Origin: Promethearchaeota archaeon
GTDB lineage: Archaea; Asgardarchaeota; Thorarchaeia; Thorarchaeales; Thorarchaeaceae
Reading direction: 5' to 3'
Assembly: GCA_014728035.1 (NCBI GenBank)
Contig: WJMJ01000131.1
Coordinates: 117,381 to 181,380 of the forward strand
Length of the DNA: 64,000 nucleotides
Below the pieces are notes generated by a model, which saw nothing but the letters and a program-made list of their open reading frames with translations, was not told the DNA's origin and searched no databases. Of this stretch, positions 50,999 through 63,332 are shown one piece after another. Numbering within the stretch: position 1 is the first letter of the stretch; every line of letters begins with the position of its first letter. The position numbers and the translations under genes are program-made.

Positions 50999-52225
50999 CT
51001 AGAGGCCCTGTTCCAAGGTCATCTTGATAGCTTCATCGATAGTGTTCTGAAGAGCTGGAGGTAAGTCTGGGGCTTGTAATTGAATGAAGCCTTGCACAAT
51101 TAGAGACGTTGCCTCATCTTCTTCAAGCCCGCGACTCATAAGATAGTTCAATTGATCAGCACCAACTTTGCCAACGGTTGCTTCGTGACTCAATTCAACA
51201 CCTTCTGCAGATGCATCAAGGATAGGAACAGCTACTATCTTTGCGGTATCACTTAAGAGAAGCCCATTACATTCAAGTCGAGCTTTAACGCCTTCAACAC
51301 GTCCTTGCAAGTCACCGCGTGCAATAATTTCAGAGTTCTCAGTAGCTATGGTGCGAGATATTACCTTGCCGCTAGTACCATTAGCTTCAAGGACAAGAGA
51401 ACCACCAATATCATAGACGGAATCTTTTGTTCCATAAACAACTGAATATAGTTCTGCACGAGCATTTCTCCCAATCAGTCTAACCTTTGGATAAGATTGG
51501 ATGGATTTGATAGGGCTCAATACGGCATAGCTAGAAACAAAGACTCCATTTTCCTCAACTATCGCAGCAGATCTAGGGCGAACATCAACGGCTTCATTCC
51601 ACTTGTGAACCATTGTGAAGGTCATCCGTGCATCCTTTTTCACATAGAATTCAGAAACTCCGAGATGCAATGAGCGTTCCACCGATGAAGGGGTAGCACA
51701 GCCTGTGACAATGTGTAGCTCTGACCCTTCTTCTGCTATGAGAATATTATGAACGTTCTGAGCAAATTGTTTCTTCTTCATTACTAGACATGTCTGAACC
51801 GGCATCTGGATTTTCTTTCCAGGTAAAGCACGAATAAAGTAACCATCGTATTCTTCGAGCTCACTTCGAGCAGTATACTTGTCCGTATCTACTGATACTG
51901 CATTCCATAAGTATTCTGATAACCAGTCATATCTTTCAAGTGCCTCGGAAATGGGAAGTACTTCAAGTCCCTCTTGAGTCATCAAGACATCTGCTAGGAT
52001 GCTTTCATTATCAAATTGGGCAAACGAGCCAGAAACATCTTTTTGATCTGGGTCAAATCCAACTTCTGCAACCAAATCTCTATCTTCTTTAGAAATCTGG
52101 TCGGATTTAATGGATTGAGCTGAACCGCCATATTGAAAACCATCCAGATCAATATCAGAGCCATACTTAGCTTTTCGGTCTATTGCACTTTTTGCCTTCT
52201 CTTTTTGTTCTGTAGATGTCATCAT
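50999..52225 (-). CDS. sufB: Fe-S cluster assembly scaffold SufB/SufD-like
   Basis: QNVHNILIAEEGSEL, ELSHEATVGK, YLMSRGL. Confidence 0.92.
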   Translation of the reverse strand: MMTSTEQKEKAKSAIDRKAKYGSDIDLDGFQYGGSAQSIKSDQISKEDRDLVAEVGFDPDQKDVSGSFAQFDNESILADVLMTQEGLEVLPISEALERYDWLSEYLWNAVSVDTDKYTARSELEEYDGYFIRALPGKKIQMPVQTCLVMKKKQFAQNVHNILIAEEGSELHIVTGCATPSSVERSLHLGVSEFYVKKDARMTFTMVHKWNEAVDVRPRSAAIVEENGVFVSSYAVLSPIKSIQSYPKVRLIGRNARAELYSVVYGTKDSVYDIGGSLVLEANGTSGKVISRTIATENSEIIARGDLQGRVEGVKARLECNGLLLSDTAKIVAVPILDASAEGVELSHEATVGKVGADQLNYLMSRGLEEDEATSLIVQGFIQLQAPDLPPALQNTIDEAIKMTLEQGL

Positions 52226-52998
52226 TATACCTCCAAGGAAACTTCAGAAAGAAATCTCTCATAGCCTTTCTCAGCTAATACGGGAATGTCACTCATATCA
52301 CCAGTATACACCAGTTTCCCTTGTTGTAGAATATAGACAGTATCAACTTCTAGAAACTCGAGGATGTATCTATGATGACTAATAACAACCATAGTGGTAT
52401 TTCCTTTCTCACGTATTGCTTTCAATTCACGTCCGACAAGTTTCAGAGAATCGTAATCCAATCCACTATCAGGTTCATCAAGAAACATGATTTGGGGATG
52501 CATAGATAATACCTGAAATAACTCAGATCGTTTCTGTTCGCCACCTGAAAATCCATCGTTCAGATCTCTATGAGCGAGATTAGCAATGCCTAATCGATCG
52601 AAATCCTCATACAGCTCCATTCTACAGGAGCATGCTACGCCCATGAAATGATCACTAGGCTCTTTACATTCATACTCTGGGCAAATTCTACATATGAACT
52701 CATCAAGTTGGACTCCAGGAATCGAAGGTGGCGACTGAAAAGCGTATGCGATTCCCATTTGAGCTCTCTGTGTGATATTCTTATCAAGCAATGATTCGCT
52801 ATTGAATAGAATATCACCACCATCAATCTTGAACTCGGGAAGTCCCATTATTGCTTTTGCTAAAGTTGATTTTCCAGAGGCATTTGGCCCGAGAACAGCG
52901 TATACCTTCCCGCGTTCAAATTCTAACGTCACACCATCAAGAATTCGAGTTCCATTAATACTAACTCTAAGGTCATGTGTTTCAAGAAGCGGATTCAT
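52225..52998 (-). CDS. sufC: Fe-S cluster assembly ATPase SufC
   Basis: GPNASGKST, FSGGEQKRSE, DEPDSGLD; adjacent to sufB. Confidence 0.93.
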   Translation of the reverse strand: MNPLLETHDLRVSINGTRILDGVTLEFERGKVYAVLGPNASGKSTLAKAIMGLPEFKIDGGDILFNSESLLDKNITQRAQMGIAYAFQSPPSIPGVQLDEFICRICPEYECKEPSDHFMGVACSCRMELYEDFDRLGIANLAHRDLNDGFSGGEQKRSELFQVLSMHPQIMFLDEPDSGLDYDSLKLVGRELKAIREKGNTTMVVISHHRYILEFLEVDTVYILQQGKLVYTGDMSDIPVLAEKGYERFLSEVSLEV

Positions 52999-53091
52999 TC
53001 CATCATCCCCACAAGCTGTTAATTATTGTTAACTATAAAAGACTATGAATGGGGCAAATACTGTAATAGAATCAGGTGAAGATTTCAGTTA

Positions 53092-53562
53092 TCAGTTATC
53101 TTCAATCTGAGAGAGCAACTGGATTACCTTCTTTGATGACCAAGCAACATAGTCTTCGCAACGGTCTCGAACTGGTTCTTGTTTCAATCTCAGCTTTCCG
53201 GCAGGATTCAGTTCTCCTCGATCCATAGCTTTCAGATGCCTGCAATCGGTGGTTCCCCAAGATTCAACAAATTCCATAAGAAACTGATTGCCAACACTTC
53301 TTCCCAGACTTCTACGTTCTTTGAATGTTTTTGCGTCTTCTGTACCATCTGTGCCAAAAGCTAATCCAAGACAAATGATGGCACCACTTGCAGCCCCACA
53401 AATCTGACCACTTCCACATATACCTCCACCACATAAGGATGCAACTCTCATAGAAGAGGAATTGAATGCATCAATGGGATGGTCCTTGTTGACTCGTACA
53501 ACAACACTTTCAGCACAGTTCAGTGAGTTTCCATGCATTTTTTCCATGTAAATCCCAGTCAT
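53092..53562 (-). CDS. C-GCAxxG-C-C family redox protein
   Basis: NCAESV, GQICGAASG, DCRHL, RC. Confidence 0.88.
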   Translation of the reverse strand: MTGIYMEKMHGNSLNCAESVVVRVNKDHPIDAFNSSSMRVASLCGGGICGSGQICGAASGAIICLGLAFGTDGTEDAKTFKERRSLGRSVGNQFLMEFVESWGTTDCRHLKAMDRGELNPAGKLRLKQEPVRDRCEDYVAWSSKKVIQLLSQIEDN

Positions 53563-53625
53563 CCGACCATATCATAGACATGAAAAAGGTTCGGATTCAT
53601 TCATTAACTATTAGGAGTGTTCCAA

Positions 53626-54792
53626 ATGAATAACTCAGTTCCACTCATGACCGCAGCAATACGTGGAAAGCAAAACGAAGTTCAGGCAATTCTAGATAGA
53701 GGAGAGAATCCAAATCAGAGTGACGACTTTGGAAGAACTGCAATAATATATGCTGCATCTAAGAGTGAATTCGACATCATCAAGATATTAGTAGATGCAG
53801 GTGCAGATGTTAACAAACAAGATAAGGAGGGCTGGAATGCACTGATGGTGGCTACTAATGAGGGAGAAATAGACATTGTGAGATATCTTATAGAACAGGG
53901 GGCTGATGTAAATAGTAGAACCGTAGGAGGACAATCAGTTCTTCAACTTGCTGTTGCAACAGGAAAACAGGAAATCACCAAACTATTAATCGAGTGTGGA
54001 TCAAATCCTGGATATGTTAGACCAGATGGATATACGGTACTAATGGCTGCAGTGCAAGGAGAGGATATTCAAATTATACAAGGATTGCTGACAGACTACA
54101 AGCTGGATATTAATCGTGAACAACCAGATGGTTGGAATGCATTACGATATGCAGTAGATACGGGAAATACAGCTATAGTGAAGACACTTTTGGAACACGG
54201 CGCAGACCCCAATTGGTCGAATAAAAATGGTTACTCCCTACTGGTAATAGCAATAGAGAATGGCTTGCCAGAAATAGCTCATTTGATTATCAAACATGGA
54301 GCTCAAATCAATACAAGATTTGGTTCCGGTTGGACCGCCCTCACTCTAGCATCTCAAAAAGGACAAGCGGATATTGTCACCAAGCTCATTGAGAATGGAG
54401 CAGATATCGATATCCAGTTAGATTCGGGACAGTCAACATTGATGACAGCAGCCTCAAGTGGAAAACAACAAATTGTAGATATTCTAATTGAGAGAGGTGC
54501 AAATATTCATCTCACAAGAAAGGATGGATATACCAATCTCATGGCAGCTGCAGAGGGAGGGCTAACCGATTTCGCACAATATCTAGTTGAGGAAAATATA
54601 GAGATAGATGAACAGACAGAATCCGGAGCAACAGCATTAATGATAGCTGCTCAAAGAGGGAATGTAGATTTTGTCAAACTTCTTCTTGACAATGGTGCAA
54701 GCCCCAGTATTCAAGACAACTTTGGGAAAGTGGCAAAAGACTACGCCAAGATGAACAAACATGAAAATATTGCGACTATGCTTAGCTCCTAG
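53626..54792 (+). CDS. Ankyrin repeat protein (~11 repeats)
   Basis: Repeated GxTALMxAAxxG...LIExGADVN units. Confidence 0.95.
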   Translation: MNNSVPLMTAAIRGKQNEVQAILDRGENPNQSDDFGRTAIIYAASKSEFDIIKILVDAGADVNKQDKEGWNALMVATNEGEIDIVRYLIEQGADVNSRTVGGQSVLQLAVATGKQEITKLLIECGSNPGYVRPDGYTVLMAAVQGEDIQIIQGLLTDYKLDINREQPDGWNALRYAVDTGNTAIVKTLLEHGADPNWSNKNGYSLLVIAIENGLPEIAHLIIKHGAQINTRFGSGWTALTLASQKGQADIVTKLIENGADIDIQLDSGQSTLMTAASSGKQQIVDILIERGANIHLTRKDGYTNLMAAAEGGLTDFAQYLVEENIEIDEQTESGATALMIAAQRGNVDFVKLLLDNGASPSIQDNFGKVAKDYAKMNKHENIATMLSS

Positions 54793-54844
54793 TATCATCA
54801 CGCTTAAAACGGTCTATATCCGAAAACTCAATGGGTTATAGTCA

Positions 54845-55315
54845 TTGACAGAAGTCCAGCAATCATTTGAGAGGTTAATCTCCCTGGCAATAGAGAGGGA
54901 GGTAGAAGCTTATGAATTCTACACAAAGGCTGCAGAGGAAGCAACTCTTTCTTCATCAGCGAAACTGCTCAAGGAGCTTGCAGAACAAGAAGTATCTCAC
55001 AAGGAAAAGCTTGAGAACGCTCTAAAAGAGGGCGTGTGTGGTACTTTCGAATGCAAGACAGAAGCAGAATTTGAGAAATTAGACTTGGGAAAATACTTAG
55101 TGGATGTACCATTAAAACCAGATTCATCACCTCAAGATATCCTTGTGGTAGCAATTAAGAGGGAAGAAGGAGCGTATGATTTCTACAAATCACTATCAGA
55201 ACTGACCAGTGTGTCAGCACATAGAACGGTTTTTGAAACATTAGCTGAAGAAGAGCAAAAACACAAAGAACGTCTGCAGCAGATGTACGACGAGGTTTTC
55301 TCACCAGACATGTAA
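54845..55315 (+). CDS. Rubrerythrin/ferritin-like diiron protein
   Basis: AIERE...FY...EQEVSH and AIKRE...FY...EEQKH. Confidence 0.9.
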   Translation: MTEVQQSFERLISLAIEREVEAYEFYTKAAEEATLSSSAKLLKELAEQEVSHKEKLENALKEGVCGTFECKTEAEFEKLDLGKYLVDVPLKPDSSPQDILVVAIKREEGAYDFYKSLSELTSVSAHRTVFETLAEEEQKHKERLQQMYDEVFSPDM

Positions 55316-55355: not shown

Positions 55356-56633
55356 CTAATTCTTATGCAGTTTTGGAGCCGCAATGAAAGTCAAACCTTT
55401 CTTAGTTAGCTCTTCAGCTGTTCGGTTCAAAGCATGATGCTTGTCCAGATAATTTCTAAGCATCTTTGGCATATCTCCCGATTCGATAATTTCACTCTTA
55501 TCGCGGAAATAATCAAGGATATCACTGGGGTGATCACGAGTGACATCAATCTCAGGAATTCCTCCCTCATGTTTCGCACTTATATTCTTGACATGATCAG
55601 CTAATTCAACTAATTCTTCAGTACGGTCGTAGGGTTGACGTACAATAGATTTGTAGGTTTCAGTAATGTGATGTTCTAAGCGAACCACATCTTCAAACCC
55701 AAAATCGTCCCGAATGAAAGCTGCGAGTTCTATGGTGGATTTATCCACACTGTTTGATAGATTGAATCCAATAAGGGGAGTCGTACCATCAGGCCGACTA
55801 AATAATTTCGCGGTCAATAATGTCCAAAGACAAGCATATGGATTATCATTGCCCATGAATACAGAAATTTTGAACTCCAAATCAATACCTAATTTATACA
55901 GTATATAACCAACAAGAACACTTCCAGGATTGATGTTTAGAACTTGCTTTACCCCATAAGTTGTATAATAATGCAGAAATTCATCAGCCCATTTTAATAC
56001 ATAATCATTGGGCATGCCAACTCCACCAAAGTATCCAGTAATTGTTTCTGGTCCACCAAGATGAATATTTACAGGAGCTCCATCTGGGCCAGGTGCAGTC
56101 CCCTTGGTATCAAGAGTTTCAACGTAGGATGAACCTAAGATTTGCATTGCAGCAGCAAAAGCCACAATATCGTCATCTTGTGTCTGTTCCTTCATTTTTC
56201 TAACGCGGATAAATCGCCCAGGCATAAGTTCTTCCTTGTCAATTGCCTGCTTTGCCTGTTCAATAAGCCAAGGAAAATACTGACACGCACTTATCTCAAG
56301 AGTTACTGCAAAACTATCATCGAAGCTCATTGATTCTGCCTTATCACCCAAAACCTTCTGACGGAAATCTGAAATGCTAATGAAAGCACCTTTATCACGC
56401 TGTTCTTGAAGCCATTTCAAGTCAGCCAAGTAAGGAGATTTCTTCTTCTCCAAAACAGCAAGTAGGTGTTCCAACCTGCGAGCTTCTGCAGCTTTCTTAT
56501 TGATTTCTTCTACCCCTCCGTATTTTTCAATTATCTTCAGTAATTCGGTAATCAGAGGGTTATCCTCATTCAGGAGAAAATCGTTTATTGCTTCGAGTTG
56601 TGTAGCATCGATTCTTAGCTTTTCTCTGTCCAT
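55356..56633 (-). CDS. Conserved hypothetical protein (possible alpha/beta enzyme)
   Basis: Long ORF with conserved-looking motifs (LEISACQYFPW, ETLDTKG, HLGGPETITGYFGG, SAKHEGG); function not recognised. Confidence 0.8.
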   Translation of the reverse strand: MDREKLRIDATQLEAINDFLLNEDNPLITELLKIIEKYGGVEEINKKAAEARRLEHLLAVLEKKKSPYLADLKWLQEQRDKGAFISISDFRQKVLGDKAESMSFDDSFAVTLEISACQYFPWLIEQAKQAIDKEELMPGRFIRVRKMKEQTQDDDIVAFAAAMQILGSSYVETLDTKGTAPGPDGAPVNIHLGGPETITGYFGGVGMPNDYVLKWADEFLHYYTTYGVKQVLNINPGSVLVGYILYKLGIDLEFKISVFMGNDNPYACLWTLLTAKLFSRPDGTTPLIGFNLSNSVDKSTIELAAFIRDDFGFEDVVRLEHHITETYKSIVRQPYDRTEELVELADHVKNISAKHEGGIPEIDVTRDHPSDILDYFRDKSEIIESGDMPKMLRNYLDKHHALNRTAEELTKKGLTFIAAPKLHKN

Positions 56634-56795
56634 TTCAAGACCATCCAATATGTTCGACTATTGATAATAAGCCAAGATAGCCCAATACTTGATTATTAAA
56701 AAACGATTCTGAAAGAACATTAAACATGTAATTGGTATAAAAATTAAATTGTTGAAAGTGAAACTGAGCATTACTGAAATACGTTCGCAAATGAA

Positions 56796-57383
56796 TCATT
56801 CAGCTGTCTCGAATACTTGTAATTCTTTGAAAGAATCACCATCTCCAAATATTGGAGATATATCACGAAGATATGAGCGAAACTTTGGACCAACTAATCC
56901 TACAAAAATTCCACCAACAGTCACTTGAATCCAATTGATACCAAGAAGTTCTTCCCAGGCTGCAATTTCACCAAACATAATGCTCTCAAAGAAAAAATAT
57001 CCCGCCAACATAGCTAAAGCACCAAGAACAATTCCAATAACATCCATGATACTAAGGTTATGAGACCTTCTCGCCTGTAGACTGAAGGCACCCACGATGA
57101 ACCCCTCCAGACCCTTGACAAGCAAGGTGATTGGAGCAAAAGGTATGAAGCCCAAAGCAACATCTGCCATCGCAGATCCAAATCCACCAGCTATTAGACC
57201 ACCTATTGGACCTAGAAGAAGACCACTGAGCATCACCATTGTATCCCCAATATTTAGATATCCAGAGGTTGTTGGAAAAGGAATTGCAACAACCGCAGTT
57301 ACAACAGTGGTAAGAGCTGTAAATAACGCCAATAAGACGATATACAATGTGGAATTTGTGGTGCTTGAGCTAATTTTTTCCAT
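56796..57383 (-). CDS. ECF transporter S component (PdxU/HmpT-like)
   Basis: IPFPTTSGYLNIGD...GLIAGGFGSAMAD...APITLLVKGLEG...NWIQ. Confidence 0.88.
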   Translation of the reverse strand: MEKISSSTTNSTLYIVLLALFTALTTVVTAVVAIPFPTTSGYLNIGDTMVMLSGLLLGPIGGLIAGGFGSAMADVALGFIPFAPITLLVKGLEGFIVGAFSLQARRSHNLSIMDVIGIVLGALAMLAGYFFFESIMFGEIAAWEELLGINWIQVTVGGIFVGLVGPKFRSYLRDISPIFGDGDSFKELQVFETAE

Positions 57384-57443
57384 ATGAATTACTCACCGAG
57401 TTTAAACAAGTCATGCCTCTAAACCGCAATATATAACTTTGGG

Positions 57444-57455
57444 CCTATATATAGG
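57444..57455. promoter_or_regulatory. Perfect 12-bp palindrome in the divergent promoter
   Basis: CCTATATATAGG within the 80-bp intergenic region. Confidence 0.45.
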
Positions 57456-57463
57456 TCATAATA

Positions 57464-58960
57464 ATGACCTCTTTCATAAAAGAAATGTTCTGCACCGAAT
57501 GTGAAAACAGGTACTCTGAAAAAACACAGCGAAAAATTTGCAATATCTGTAAAGAAGTATTGGAAGTCAGATACAATTACGAAGCAGCAAAAGAATCCAT
57601 GACGAAAAGGACAATCAAAAAAAGACCAAGAGGTATTTGGAGGTATTTTGAGCTTTTACCACTAATAGACAGGAGAAATGTCATTTCTCTTGGAGAAGGA
57701 CAAACCTTTCTGCATCATTGCAATTCACTTTCTGAAAATCTAGGTATTCCCAATCTCTTATTGAAGAACGAAACAACCAATCCTACAGGCTCATTTTTAG
57801 ACAGAGGAAGTAGTGTTGAAATATCAATAGCCAAAGAAAGAAAACAATACAAGATCTGTTGTGGTTCAACAGGGAATCTTGCTGCTTCTGTTGTTGCTTA
57901 TGCTGCTAAAGCGTCAGTTAGTTCAAAGGTATACATGGCACAGAAGGGGCGTATTGATATTGGAAAGTTCTATCAAATATTGGCATATGGTGCTGATGTT
58001 GAGATTGTAAAGACCAGAAAAGAAGCTATCTCGCTTGCATCACAAAAAGAGCCGATTTGTCATTCAATAACCTCATACAATCCACATTTCTTGGAAGGGA
58101 CGAAAACACTTGTCTTTGATCTTTGTGAACAACTAGACTGGAAAACGCCAGATTGGATAATTACTCCAATGGGAAGTGGTGGAAATATTTCAATGATCTG
58201 GAAAGGAATACTTGAACTTCAAGAAATGGGATTAATTGGATCAGAAACACCTAAACTAATTGGGACACAGGTGGAAGGTATTTCTCCAATAGTGGACGCA
58301 TTCAAAAACGGTCAAAAAACGGTAAGACCCTCTAGTGGAAAACCCAATCTTGCAATGGATATTGGAGTTGCAGAACCGGTATGTGGAAATAAGGCATTAG
58401 AGGCAATTAGAAAATCAAAAGGACTGGCAATTGATTTGACAGATAAAGAAATCATACAAAGTGTTAGAGACCTTGCCAGAAAAGAGGGAATATTTGCAGA
58501 ACCTGCATCAGCCACAACAATTGCTGCACTAAGAAATCTAGTAGCAGAACAAGTAATCAACCCAAATGATGTAGTGGTGTGTATGATAACAGGTACGGGG
58601 CTGAAATCACCAGAGATAGCTGAATCTTTTGTGCAAGGACGTAAAGATATTGGACATCTTCTAAGTAAATTTGAAGGACGAAAGTATACTACAGAGATTG
58701 GACGAACAAAAGTCTGTATTCTCAGATTACTTTCTCTAACAGATTCATACGGGTATGCTATTTGGAAAAACCTGTCAGAATCATATGGAATACAGATTTC
58801 AATCCCAAGTGTCTATCAGCATCTTACTGAACTTTCAAGAGGTGGATTGATTGTAGAAATTAAAACAATACTATCCCCAGAAAAGAGAGTTAGAAAATTC
58901 TATGACTTGACCGAGAGGGGGAGATGGACACTTGCTCAAATTGAGAAGATATCTGAATAG
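57464..58960 (+). CDS. Threonine-synthase-fold protein (catalytic Lys->Leu) fused to a C-terminal PadR-type wHTH
   Basis: Zn ribbon; NPTGSFLDRG; STGN, PMGSGGN, TGTGLK; C-terminal SYGYAIWK...SVYQHLTEL...RKFYDLTERG. Confidence 0.88.
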   Translation: MTSFIKEMFCTECENRYSEKTQRKICNICKEVLEVRYNYEAAKESMTKRTIKKRPRGIWRYFELLPLIDRRNVISLGEGQTFLHHCNSLSENLGIPNLLLKNETTNPTGSFLDRGSSVEISIAKERKQYKICCGSTGNLAASVVAYAAKASVSSKVYMAQKGRIDIGKFYQILAYGADVEIVKTRKEAISLASQKEPICHSITSYNPHFLEGTKTLVFDLCEQLDWKTPDWIITPMGSGGNISMIWKGILELQEMGLIGSETPKLIGTQVEGISPIVDAFKNGQKTVRPSSGKPNLAMDIGVAEPVCGNKALEAIRKSKGLAIDLTDKEIIQSVRDLARKEGIFAEPASATTIAALRNLVAEQVINPNDVVVCMITGTGLKSPEIAESFVQGRKDIGHLLSKFEGRKYTTEIGRTKVCILRLLSLTDSYGYAIWKNLSESYGIQISIPSVYQHLTELSRGGLIVEIKTILSPEKRVRKFYDLTERGRWTLAQIEKISE

Positions 58961-59053: not shown

Positions 59054-59428
59054 ATGAGTTGGATTCAAACTGATGATTGGAAAAACGAAAAACATGTACC
59101 TGTAATTGAAATCGAGAAAAAAGGAGATAACTTGTATCATATCATTATCTCAGTAGGAAAGGAAATACCCCATCCTAACACAACGGCACACCATATCAAA
59201 TGGGCAGATGCATTCTTTTTGCCAGAAGGAGAGAAATTCCCTGTTGAGATAGGCTATTGTACCTTTGATCACCATGGCGAATCGACAAAAGGAGCGGATA
59301 CAAGCAAAATGTACTCTGAGCCTTATGCAGTATTTGCTTTCAAAACCGAAAAGCCAGGAACAATAATGGCCACTTCATATTGCAACATTCACGGCCTTTG
59401 GAAAAGCGAAACTAAACTCAAGTTATAG
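59054..59428 (+). CDS. sor: Superoxide reductase (neelaredoxin, class II)
   Basis: EKHVP, HPNTTAHHIKW, SYCNIHGLW. Confidence 0.95.
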   Translation: MSWIQTDDWKNEKHVPVIEIEKKGDNLYHIIISVGKEIPHPNTTAHHIKWADAFFLPEGEKFPVEIGYCTFDHHGESTKGADTSKMYSEPYAVFAFKTEKPGTIMATSYCNIHGLWKSETKLKL

Positions 59429-62474: not shown

Positions 62475-63332
62475 ATGACAGCATCCAGAACTGCAATAAA
62501 GGAAAAGATACTCTTAATTTTAGACCGGATGCCATGTCATGGATATGATTTGCTCGATTCATTAAACGGATATCATCGAAATCTAAGACTAACAACACTG
62601 TATAGATGGCTTCATGAAATGGAATCAGAGGGTCTTATTATTAGTTCAATGGAACCAGGTCTCACAGGTCCCAAACGCCGAGTATATCATCTTGGTCCAA
62701 GAGGAGAGTCAAAGCTTCGAGAGATTCTAAGAAGTGCAATAGAGGTCTTACTTCATTTCTTTAGTGCATATAGAGGATTCCTAACTGAAGACATCCAAGA
62801 TAATTTTGAAAAAGAAATACAAGCATCTTCATCGGGGAGAATCTTGCTAGTAGCTAATCCAAGATTAAATGAACCCATTATCAATATCATAAGATATCTT
62901 CTTACAAAATGCAGTAACAAATCAATTGATGCCATGGGTGATGTGGGATTGCTTAGAGTCTATGAAATCGACTACCGACAAGTGGAGGGAGTTGCACATG
63001 ATATGCCAGTTTCTAGTAACCGTTATTCGGAGATCTGGTTGAGCGGCACCTCAGATGCTAAAATGCTACCAATAATAATTGCAGAGTGTAAAAGGGCTCT
63101 AAAACCGGGAGGAGTTTTACGTATAATCGCACCATTTGTGTTTTTTGATGAGCCAACCGAACCAACACTAAGTGAATTCATTCGTGTTACGTCAGTACAA
63201 CTTTTTCCCGATTTGGGAATAGTAGAAGGCACGGAATTATCAAGTATTATCAATGAGCAGTTCCAGGATTATGGTATATCTGAAGTATTTCCGGGTTTGG
63301 TTTTATTTTGGGCGGTAAAAAATAAGATGTAG
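62475..63332 (+). CDS. PadR wHTH fused to a degenerate SAM-methyltransferase-like domain
   Basis: PCHGYDL...TLYRWLHEMESEG...GPKRRVY; C-terminal DMPV...ECKRALKPGGVLRI. Confidence 0.82.
   Translation: MTASRTAIKEKILLILDRMPCHGYDLLDSLNGYHRNLRLTTLYRWLHEMESEGLIISSMEPGLTGPKRRVYHLGPRGESKLREILRSAIEVLLHFFSAYRGFLTEDIQDNFEKEIQASSSGRILLVANPRLNEPIINIIRYLLTKCSNKSIDAMGDVGLLRVYEIDYRQVEGVAHDMPVSSNRYSEIWLSGTSDAKMLPIIIAECKRALKPGGVLRIIAPFVFFDEPTEPTLSEFIRVTSVQLFPDLGIVEGTELSSIINEQFQDYGISEVFPGLVLFWAVKNKM

Follow-up and report, generated by a model that had tools for sequence, protein, structure and literature searches.

A gene that databases name threonine synthase very probably encodes an archaeal vitamin B6-responsive regulator, which activates genes for B6 uptake or synthesis and represses its own gene. 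It is located in a stretch of 64,000 nucleotides (the window) from a Thorarchaeota assembly of 97.9% completeness and 8.5% contamination, and it diverges from a gene for an ECF transporter S component. A preliminary description of the locus had proposed a regulator that controls B6 uptake. This proposal is now supported by the linkage to B6 genes, by a palindrome that tracks the regulator, and by the loss of the catalytic lysine together with the fusion of a helix-turn-helix (HTH) domain. The DNA binding of the regulator, the identity of its ligand, and the direction of control are what we infer. The two genes and the parts of the regulator are as follows.

57464 to 58960, forward strand: regulator gene, an open reading frame of 498 residues comprising a zinc ribbon, a lysine-less threonine-synthase-like (fold-type II) sensor, and a C-terminal PadR winged helix
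57491 to 57550, forward strand: N-terminal C4 zinc ribbon (C10, C13, C26, C29), 88–96% conserved in the groups with and without the fusion
57797 to 57799, forward strand: Leu112 in place of the Schiff-base lysine (codon TTA, motif NPTGSFLDRG)
58358 to 58360, forward strand: Asp299, a subfamily-specific acidic residue that aligns with Ala240 of Thermus thermophilus ThrC
58718 to 58936, forward strand: PadR-type winged helix-turn-helix, residues 419–491 (PF03551, E 1.4e-12)
56796 to 57383, reverse strand: gene for an ECF S component, HmpT/PdxU2-like, 195 residues, predicted to take up B6 vitamers (PF07155, E 3.9e-31)

Pfam matched both halves of the suggested threonine synthase–PadR fusion within the regulator reading frame, with a PALP domain at residues 74–377 (E 1.8e-60) and a PadR domain whose 47.9 bits lie above the gathering score of 27. 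The sensor is a fold-type II PALP domain and not a fold-type I aminotransferase-like one. The C-terminal PadR domain, in which Y431, Y451, Q452, H453, and L454 are 88–99% conserved in the subfamily alignment, is the only HTH of the protein; an N-terminal GntR winged helix is missing. Threonine synthase was the best fold match of the AlphaFold model (pLDDT 85.7), with an rmsd of 2.2 Å over 400 columns. The regulator shares the fold, the zinc ribbon, and the motifs for the PLP ring and phosphate with ThrC (PDB 1UIM, 6CGQ, 2C2B; TIGR00260, PRK08197) and is 35–37% identical to the bacterial enzymes. It differs from them by the loss of the Schiff-base lysine and of most substrate-phosphate ligands, the gain of Asp299, and the addition of PadR. 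The zinc ribbon is an inheritance from archaeal ThrC. The protein passes the TIGR00260 cut-off, and its score of 270.9 against PRK05638 is below the cut-off of 421.

Alignment with solved threonine synthases placed Leu112 at the Schiff-base lysine, which confirmed the previously noted loss of this residue. All 120 nearest homologs carry Ile (101) or Leu (19) at the site; thus, the loss is not due to a sequencing error. In a profile search unbiased towards that residue, 65 of 67 HTH-fused representatives (one a fragment) were without the lysine, and 79 of 82 unfused ones had it, the exceptions being two truncated sequences and one nested in the fused clade. The expected co-occurrence of lysine loss and HTH fusion was therefore found, though in one clade: in a tree of the core domain, the fusions grouped together with a support of 0.98, bar one weakly placed sequence. 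Lysine loss and fusion represent a single ancestral event, and for that reason, their correlation does not count as repeated evidence. The clade splits into two sister groups: one with Arg in 81% and Lys in 15% of cases at the Schiff-base site (Arg/Lys group, 26 sequences, support 1.0), and a hydrophobic one (Ile/Leu, 74 sequences, support 0.90), in which the regulator of the window sits. Homologs that retain the lysine had been named beforehand as evidence against a regulator; none is among the 120 nearest, but some fused homologs of the sister subfamily keep it. The loci of the sister subfamily are L149–L182 and L209–L238, and its lysine-bearing members occur in a few Asgard genomes.

We collected 81 regulator loci from Asgard archaea, Bathyarchaeia, Nitrososphaerota, Thermoprotei, and Thermoplasmata. 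An ECF S gene lies within two genes of the regulator at 62 of them, many or most being related Thorarchaeota; pdxS-pdxT is linked at 6, an ECF S gene is farther off at 1, and neither is found at 12. The predicted linkage to B6 genes, either ECF S or pdxST, is thus not confined to Asgard archaea but is also seen in Bathyarchaeia and other lineages. In a whole-genome sample of 251 Asgard and 151 Bathyarchaeia-class genomes, a hydrophobic-group regulator and pdxS were adjacent wherever they shared a genome (6/6), and no unlinked pdxS was detected in a sampled genome with such a regulator. Linkage to pdxS occurs on at least four separate branches of the tree, including that of a basal member chosen blind to context, and two of five distant picks had other neighbours. 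One genome, G129, carries an ECF S-pdxS-pdxT operon (L183). The Arg/Lys sister, represented by the ‘threonine synthase’ PRK05638, is likewise a ThrC–HTH fusion of the same clade and also stands next to an ECF S gene. However, it lacks Asp299 and an upstream palindrome, its ECF S gene is usually downstream, and it was adjacent to pdxS in none of the seven genomes containing both. A search for NF004170 around G278 gave 0 of 101.

None of 59 Thorarchaeota genomes contained pdxS, nor did the source genome, which fits a switch of the target to uptake. Because the regulator is linked to pdxST or to an ECF S gene, and Thorarchaeota are devoid of pdxS, we conclude that its target follows the B6 source of the organism. 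No PdxK/ThiD-family kinase was found above the cut-off in the source genome, so that the route from the imported vitamer to PLP is presumably missing or incomplete. A gene related to AIR synthase (PurM/ThiL-like) is a recurrent neighbour of the ECF S gene (L052, L054, L261, L214, L221, L225, L230, L236) and is also present in the source genome (contig C37, 99121–100140). Speculatively, the missing B6 vitamer kinase of PdxK-less archaea could be its product.

The divergent genes are separated by an 80-bp spacer (57384–57463) with the following elements.

57444 to 57455, no strand assigned: palindromic candidate operator CCTATATATAGG, from the comparison of regulator promoters
57429 to 57443, reverse strand: BRE-like heptamer (57437–57443) and TATA box TTATATAT (57429–57436) of the ECF S gene
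57392 to 57397, reverse strand: Shine-Dalgarno-like GGTGAG ahead of the start of the ECF S gene, from the sequence

Both the shared promoter and its palindrome, as first described, were thereby recovered. No second perfect copy of CCTATATATAGG exists in the 4.3-Mb assembly, and a given 80-bp spacer would contain it by chance with a probability of ~7e-6. It is positioned 7 nt upstream of the ECF S TATA box and ends 8 nt before the start codon of the regulator (1–25 nt in most loci). The BRE/TATA element, read on the forward strand, could also serve the regulator gene. Allowing two mismatches, the palindrome was present in 61 of 81 regulator promoters as compared to 6 of 742 other promoters of the same loci, and TTATATAT followed on the target strand at a distance of 7 nt in 50 of 62 scored promoters.

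Motif discovery upstream of these genes, which had been suggested as a check, revealed that the palindrome tracks the regulator. The TATA-N7-palindrome arrangement was detected in 44 of 87 Thorarchaeia genomes, namely all 43 with the regulator and one in which the contig stops just past the site; 79 of the 87 genomes have the ECF S gene, and the reversed pattern, used as a control, gave 0 matches in the same set. In the regulator-less relatives examined, the flanking gene order is the same and BRE-TATA is kept in most, whereas the palindrome has decayed. The same holds for a Bathyarchaeia pdxS without an upstream regulator (L259). Since the TATA box outlasts the palindrome, the core promoter is separable from the operator, and a palindrome that is a mere TATA box is ruled out. 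It is not the TATA box of the regulator either, being too near to the start codon of that gene. Of the pdxS promoters in genomes without a detected subfamily regulator, none scored above 7.5, with three regulator-linked variant sites themselves reaching only 4.3–6.4.

The operator-N7-TATA arrangement was also found away from the regulator gene, in front of a radical SAM gene (L040), an ECF S gene (L054), a GNAT and an HTH gene (L277), and, in two Thorarchaeota, a gene for a DUF89/ARMT1 damage-control phosphatase (L275:105–131, L276:3370–3396). The phosphatase, GNAT, and radical SAM genes are without an established B6 role. A scan of the source genome for a wider regulon with an extended weight matrix yielded the site in the window alone, and matches to the one-mismatch pattern in five distant genomes were no commoner than those to controls. 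A sigma-70 promoter scan, the model of which does not apply to archaea, remained at chance level. Several lineages have GNAT, radical SAM, EamA, and C45/AAT genes inserted behind the operator (L008, L011–L014, L018, L035, L040, L047).

The arrangement suggests how the regulator might work. A dimer, as would be expected from ThrC and PadR, would bind the palindrome via its winged helices. On the target strand, the operator is directly upstream of BRE-TATA and would thus occupy the position of an activator: archaeal activators bind upstream of BRE/TATA (PMC5937170), and the operator of RbkR is just upstream of the TATA box (PMC5397151). At low B6, the regulator would aid the loading of TFB/TBP and thereby switch on, in B6 auxotrophs such as the source organism, the ECF S gene or, in prototrophs, pdxST. 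On the regulator strand, the operator lies between the TATA box and the start codon, and binding there would repress the regulator gene. Activation would end once a B6 vitamer occupies the dead pocket by non-covalent binding; PLP, PMP, and a PLP-amino acid aldimine are the candidates. Scarcity of B6 is the condition under which pdxST should be expressed; the simplest model is therefore an apo-activator that also represses its own gene and has the vitamer as anti-activator. The same logic applies to PdxR: its apo form is an activator of pdxST and a repressor of its own gene, and PLP is the anti-activator (PMC5320631). Several observations speak against this reading: the ECF-linked loci are mostly related Thorarchaeota, 12 of the 81 loci have neither partner and two distant picks have other neighbours, two pocket residues of the S component differ from those of HmpT, no PdxK/ThiD-family kinase exceeds the cut-off in the source genome, and operator sites also precede genes with no established B6 role.

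It is unlikely, in our view, that the protein is a B6-linked plain repressor with the vitamer as co-repressor, or an autoregulator only, for which the palindrome would mainly serve its own gene. PadR proteins are mostly repressors, the palindrome ends close to the regulator start codon at most loci, and its AT-rich core could itself bind TBP. However, the palindrome-N7-TATA arrangement also stands at promoters without an adjoining regulator gene (L040, L054, L275–L277), and on the target genes, the operator cannot block the polymerase because it is upstream of BRE.

To compare the pocket of the presumed activator with that of an active enzyme, its positions were mapped by alignment onto T. thermophilus ThrC, for which the numbering was checked. 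Residues F111 (96% conserved in the hydrophobic group), N138 (84%, with 14% Asp), G237 (96%), G239 (100%), E346 (95%), and T376 (99%) occupy positions that we take to contact the PLP ring and phosphate, and these contacts seem to be kept in the subfamily. K61, T88, N154, S155, R160, and N188 of T. thermophilus ThrC, presumably the substrate-phosphate ligands, correspond to L112, L139, T203, S204, F209, and S238 in the regulator, which suggests that most of these ligands were lost in the subfamily. Of the elements initially described as retained PLP contacts, STGN, PMGSGGN, and TGTGLK are all present, but STGN is partly a substrate loop and varies across the subfamily. It is intact in the regulator and most Thorarchaeota homologs, whereas its S135 and T136 are only 26–29% conserved in the subfamily.

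K168, K214, and K381 are kept, and the alignment of the hydrophobic group revealed no gain of a subfamily-specific lysine. Gained in this group were D165, Y170, and D299. An acidic residue (Asp or Glu) at position 299 is present in 99% of the subfamily, 0% of the Lys enzymes, and 4% of the Arg/Lys sister group. The Ala240 of T. thermophilus ThrC, which we assume to lie against the cofactor ring, corresponds to this position. Asp299 would then be on the open face of the cofactor, where an acid would fit a vitamer that bears an amine. As the title of PDB entry 1D6S indicates, PLP can still be held as an external aldimine by a fold-type II enzyme that lacks the lysine. More tentatively, and with considerable doubt, the pocket might have been rebuilt, with Leu/Ile in place of Lys and Asp/Glu299 in place of Ala, so that it reads a cofactor with an amine, for example, pyridoxamine phosphate or a PLP-amino acid aldimine, and not free PLP. 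The protein would then be the first archaeal B6 regulator, whose regulon (GNAT, radical SAM, DUF89 phosphatase, EamA), together with the AIR-synthase-like gene nearby, would suggest that PdxK-less archaea possess an unknown route of salvage.

The preliminary description had considered sensing of threonine or phosphohomoserine instead. A regulator of the same genes whose pocket responds to an amino acid, phosphorylated or not (threonine, O-phosphohomoserine), and to no B6 vitamer now seems improbable. The descent from ThrC, the intact STGN here and in most Thorarchaeota homologs, and the three retained lysines agree with such a sensor. This alternative is nevertheless weakened, because most substrate-phosphate ligands are gone: K61, T88, N154, and R160, if their roles are as we presume, have been replaced by L112, L139, T203, and F209. 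Moreover, S135 and T136 are poorly conserved, threonine-pathway genes were not found among the recurring neighbours of the regulator loci, and the targets are B6 genes.

The likeness of the ECF S component to PdxU/HmpT, suspected from the outset, was substantiated by the PF07155 match and by its sole PDB match, HmpT/PdxU2 (4HZU chain S, E 4.9e-12). The pocket residues E41, H84, Q87, Y120, N140, and Q143 of HmpT (PMC4860826) correspond to D47, K90, E93, Y129, N150, and Q153, that is, three of the six positions are identical (Tyr, Asn, Gln), one is conservatively exchanged (Glu to Asp), and two are changed (His84 to Lys, Gln87 to Glu). The Lys and Glu are found in nearly all of 110 aligned archaeal homologs. 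The source genome contains three EcfT modules.

HmpT was first named after hydroxymethylpyrimidine (HMP) but bound pyridoxamine in experiments (PMC4860826). Control over the uptake of HMP or another thiamine precursor is very improbable. Apart from the original name of HmpT, ThiD-ThiN or ThiR-like genes at two loci (L054, L074) and the recurrent AIR-synthase-like gene beside the ECF S gene would be consistent with it. It leaves the 6/6 linkage to pdxST unexplained, however, and it conflicts with the pyridoxamine binding of HmpT, with the lack of a ThiD above the cut-off in the source genome, and with a separate ThiR-like gene there. The latter, an HTH-ThiN gene on contig C79 (16800–17723) identified by eye and by a ThiN-domain match, faces a probable thiamine ABC transporter in divergent orientation and would represent a thiamine regulator in its own right.

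Downstream of the ECF S gene lies a further conserved gene.

55356 to 56648, reverse strand: protein of ~425 residues, downstream of the ECF S gene in Thorarchaeota, no Pfam match

The gene is possibly co-transcribed with the ECF S gene, which it follows in the Thorarchaeota loci examined, with the regulator present or absent. The protein has at least 8000 homologs, the top 120 being 77–89% identical, and no match in Pfam, Atlas, or fold searches (model pLDDT 52.8). Its weak model hints at a TIM-barrel-like core, without a significant fold match, and it is not homologous to the product of the gene after P0162.

That the regulator is still an active or bifunctional enzyme, using another lysine or a heterodimer with an intact ThrC paralog, is scarcely credible, as the database name, the TIGR00260 match, the precedent of the bifunctional RbkR, and two ThrC-like paralogs with intact lysine elsewhere in the source genome are outweighed by the lost substrate ligands, the lack of a newly gained lysine, and the acidic residue that replaces a small one on the presumed open face of the cofactor, and the paralogs could cover threonine synthesis.

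By its sequence, the regulator would be neither an active ThrC, given the missing lysine, nor a MocR/PdxR factor, from which it differs in HTH, fold, and domain order. It is best read as an enzyme-derived vitamin regulator that resembles PdxR in its mode of action and RbkR and ThiR in its construction. Bacterial PdxR/MocR proteins (PMC5320631) likewise consist of an HTH fused to a PLP-enzyme-like sensor. PdxR is divergent from pdxST, its regulons include pdxST and pdxU and also feature acetyltransferases, and it follows the apo-activator and autorepressor logic that is predicted here (PMC5320631). The regulator resembles it in the linkage to pdxST or pdxU-like genes and in the candidate operator in the divergent spacer. 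PdxR, however, combines an N-terminal GntR HTH with a fold-type I aminotransferase domain, whereas the regulator has a fold-type II ThrC domain without the lysine and a C-terminal PadR HTH, and MocR factors are absent from Archaea (PMC5320631). RbkR (PMC5397151) and ThiR are also enzyme domains reused as vitamin sensors by fusion to an HTH, with an operator just upstream of the TATA box and control over synthesis and uptake genes. They differ in the vitamin and the fold, and RbkR is a still active kinase with an N-terminal HTH (PMC5397151), whereas the regulator is apparently catalytically dead and has its HTH at the C-terminus. Unlike those of RbkR and ThiR, its sensor derives from a cofactor-using enzyme outside the pathway of the vitamin itself.

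In a literature search whose coverage excluded most subscription journals, we found neither a description of this regulator nor one of an archaeal protein for switching B6 uptake or synthesis genes. Transport of B6 is poorly known in all prokaryotes (PMC9997740). If the proposed function is correct, it represents a second, independent solution to PLP sensing, built from a fold-type II enzyme minus its catalytic lysine, and provides a protein, a candidate operator, and a predicted direction of control for B6 in archaea. The ‘threonine synthase’ label, widespread in Asgard archaea, Bathyarchaeia, and further lineages, would also have to be corrected, and the regulon and neighbouring genes would supply candidates for missing steps of B6 salvage.

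The window contains a second PadR protein at 62475–63332 on the forward strand. Its C-terminal region is methyltransferase-like by eye, and Pfam matched PadR only. The surroundings (50999–55315 and 59054–59428) have a redox and Fe-S character, with SufB/D-like and SufC-like reading frames assigned by eye, a C_GCAxxG_C_C protein, an ankyrin protein, a rubrerythrin-like protein, and a superoxide reductase.
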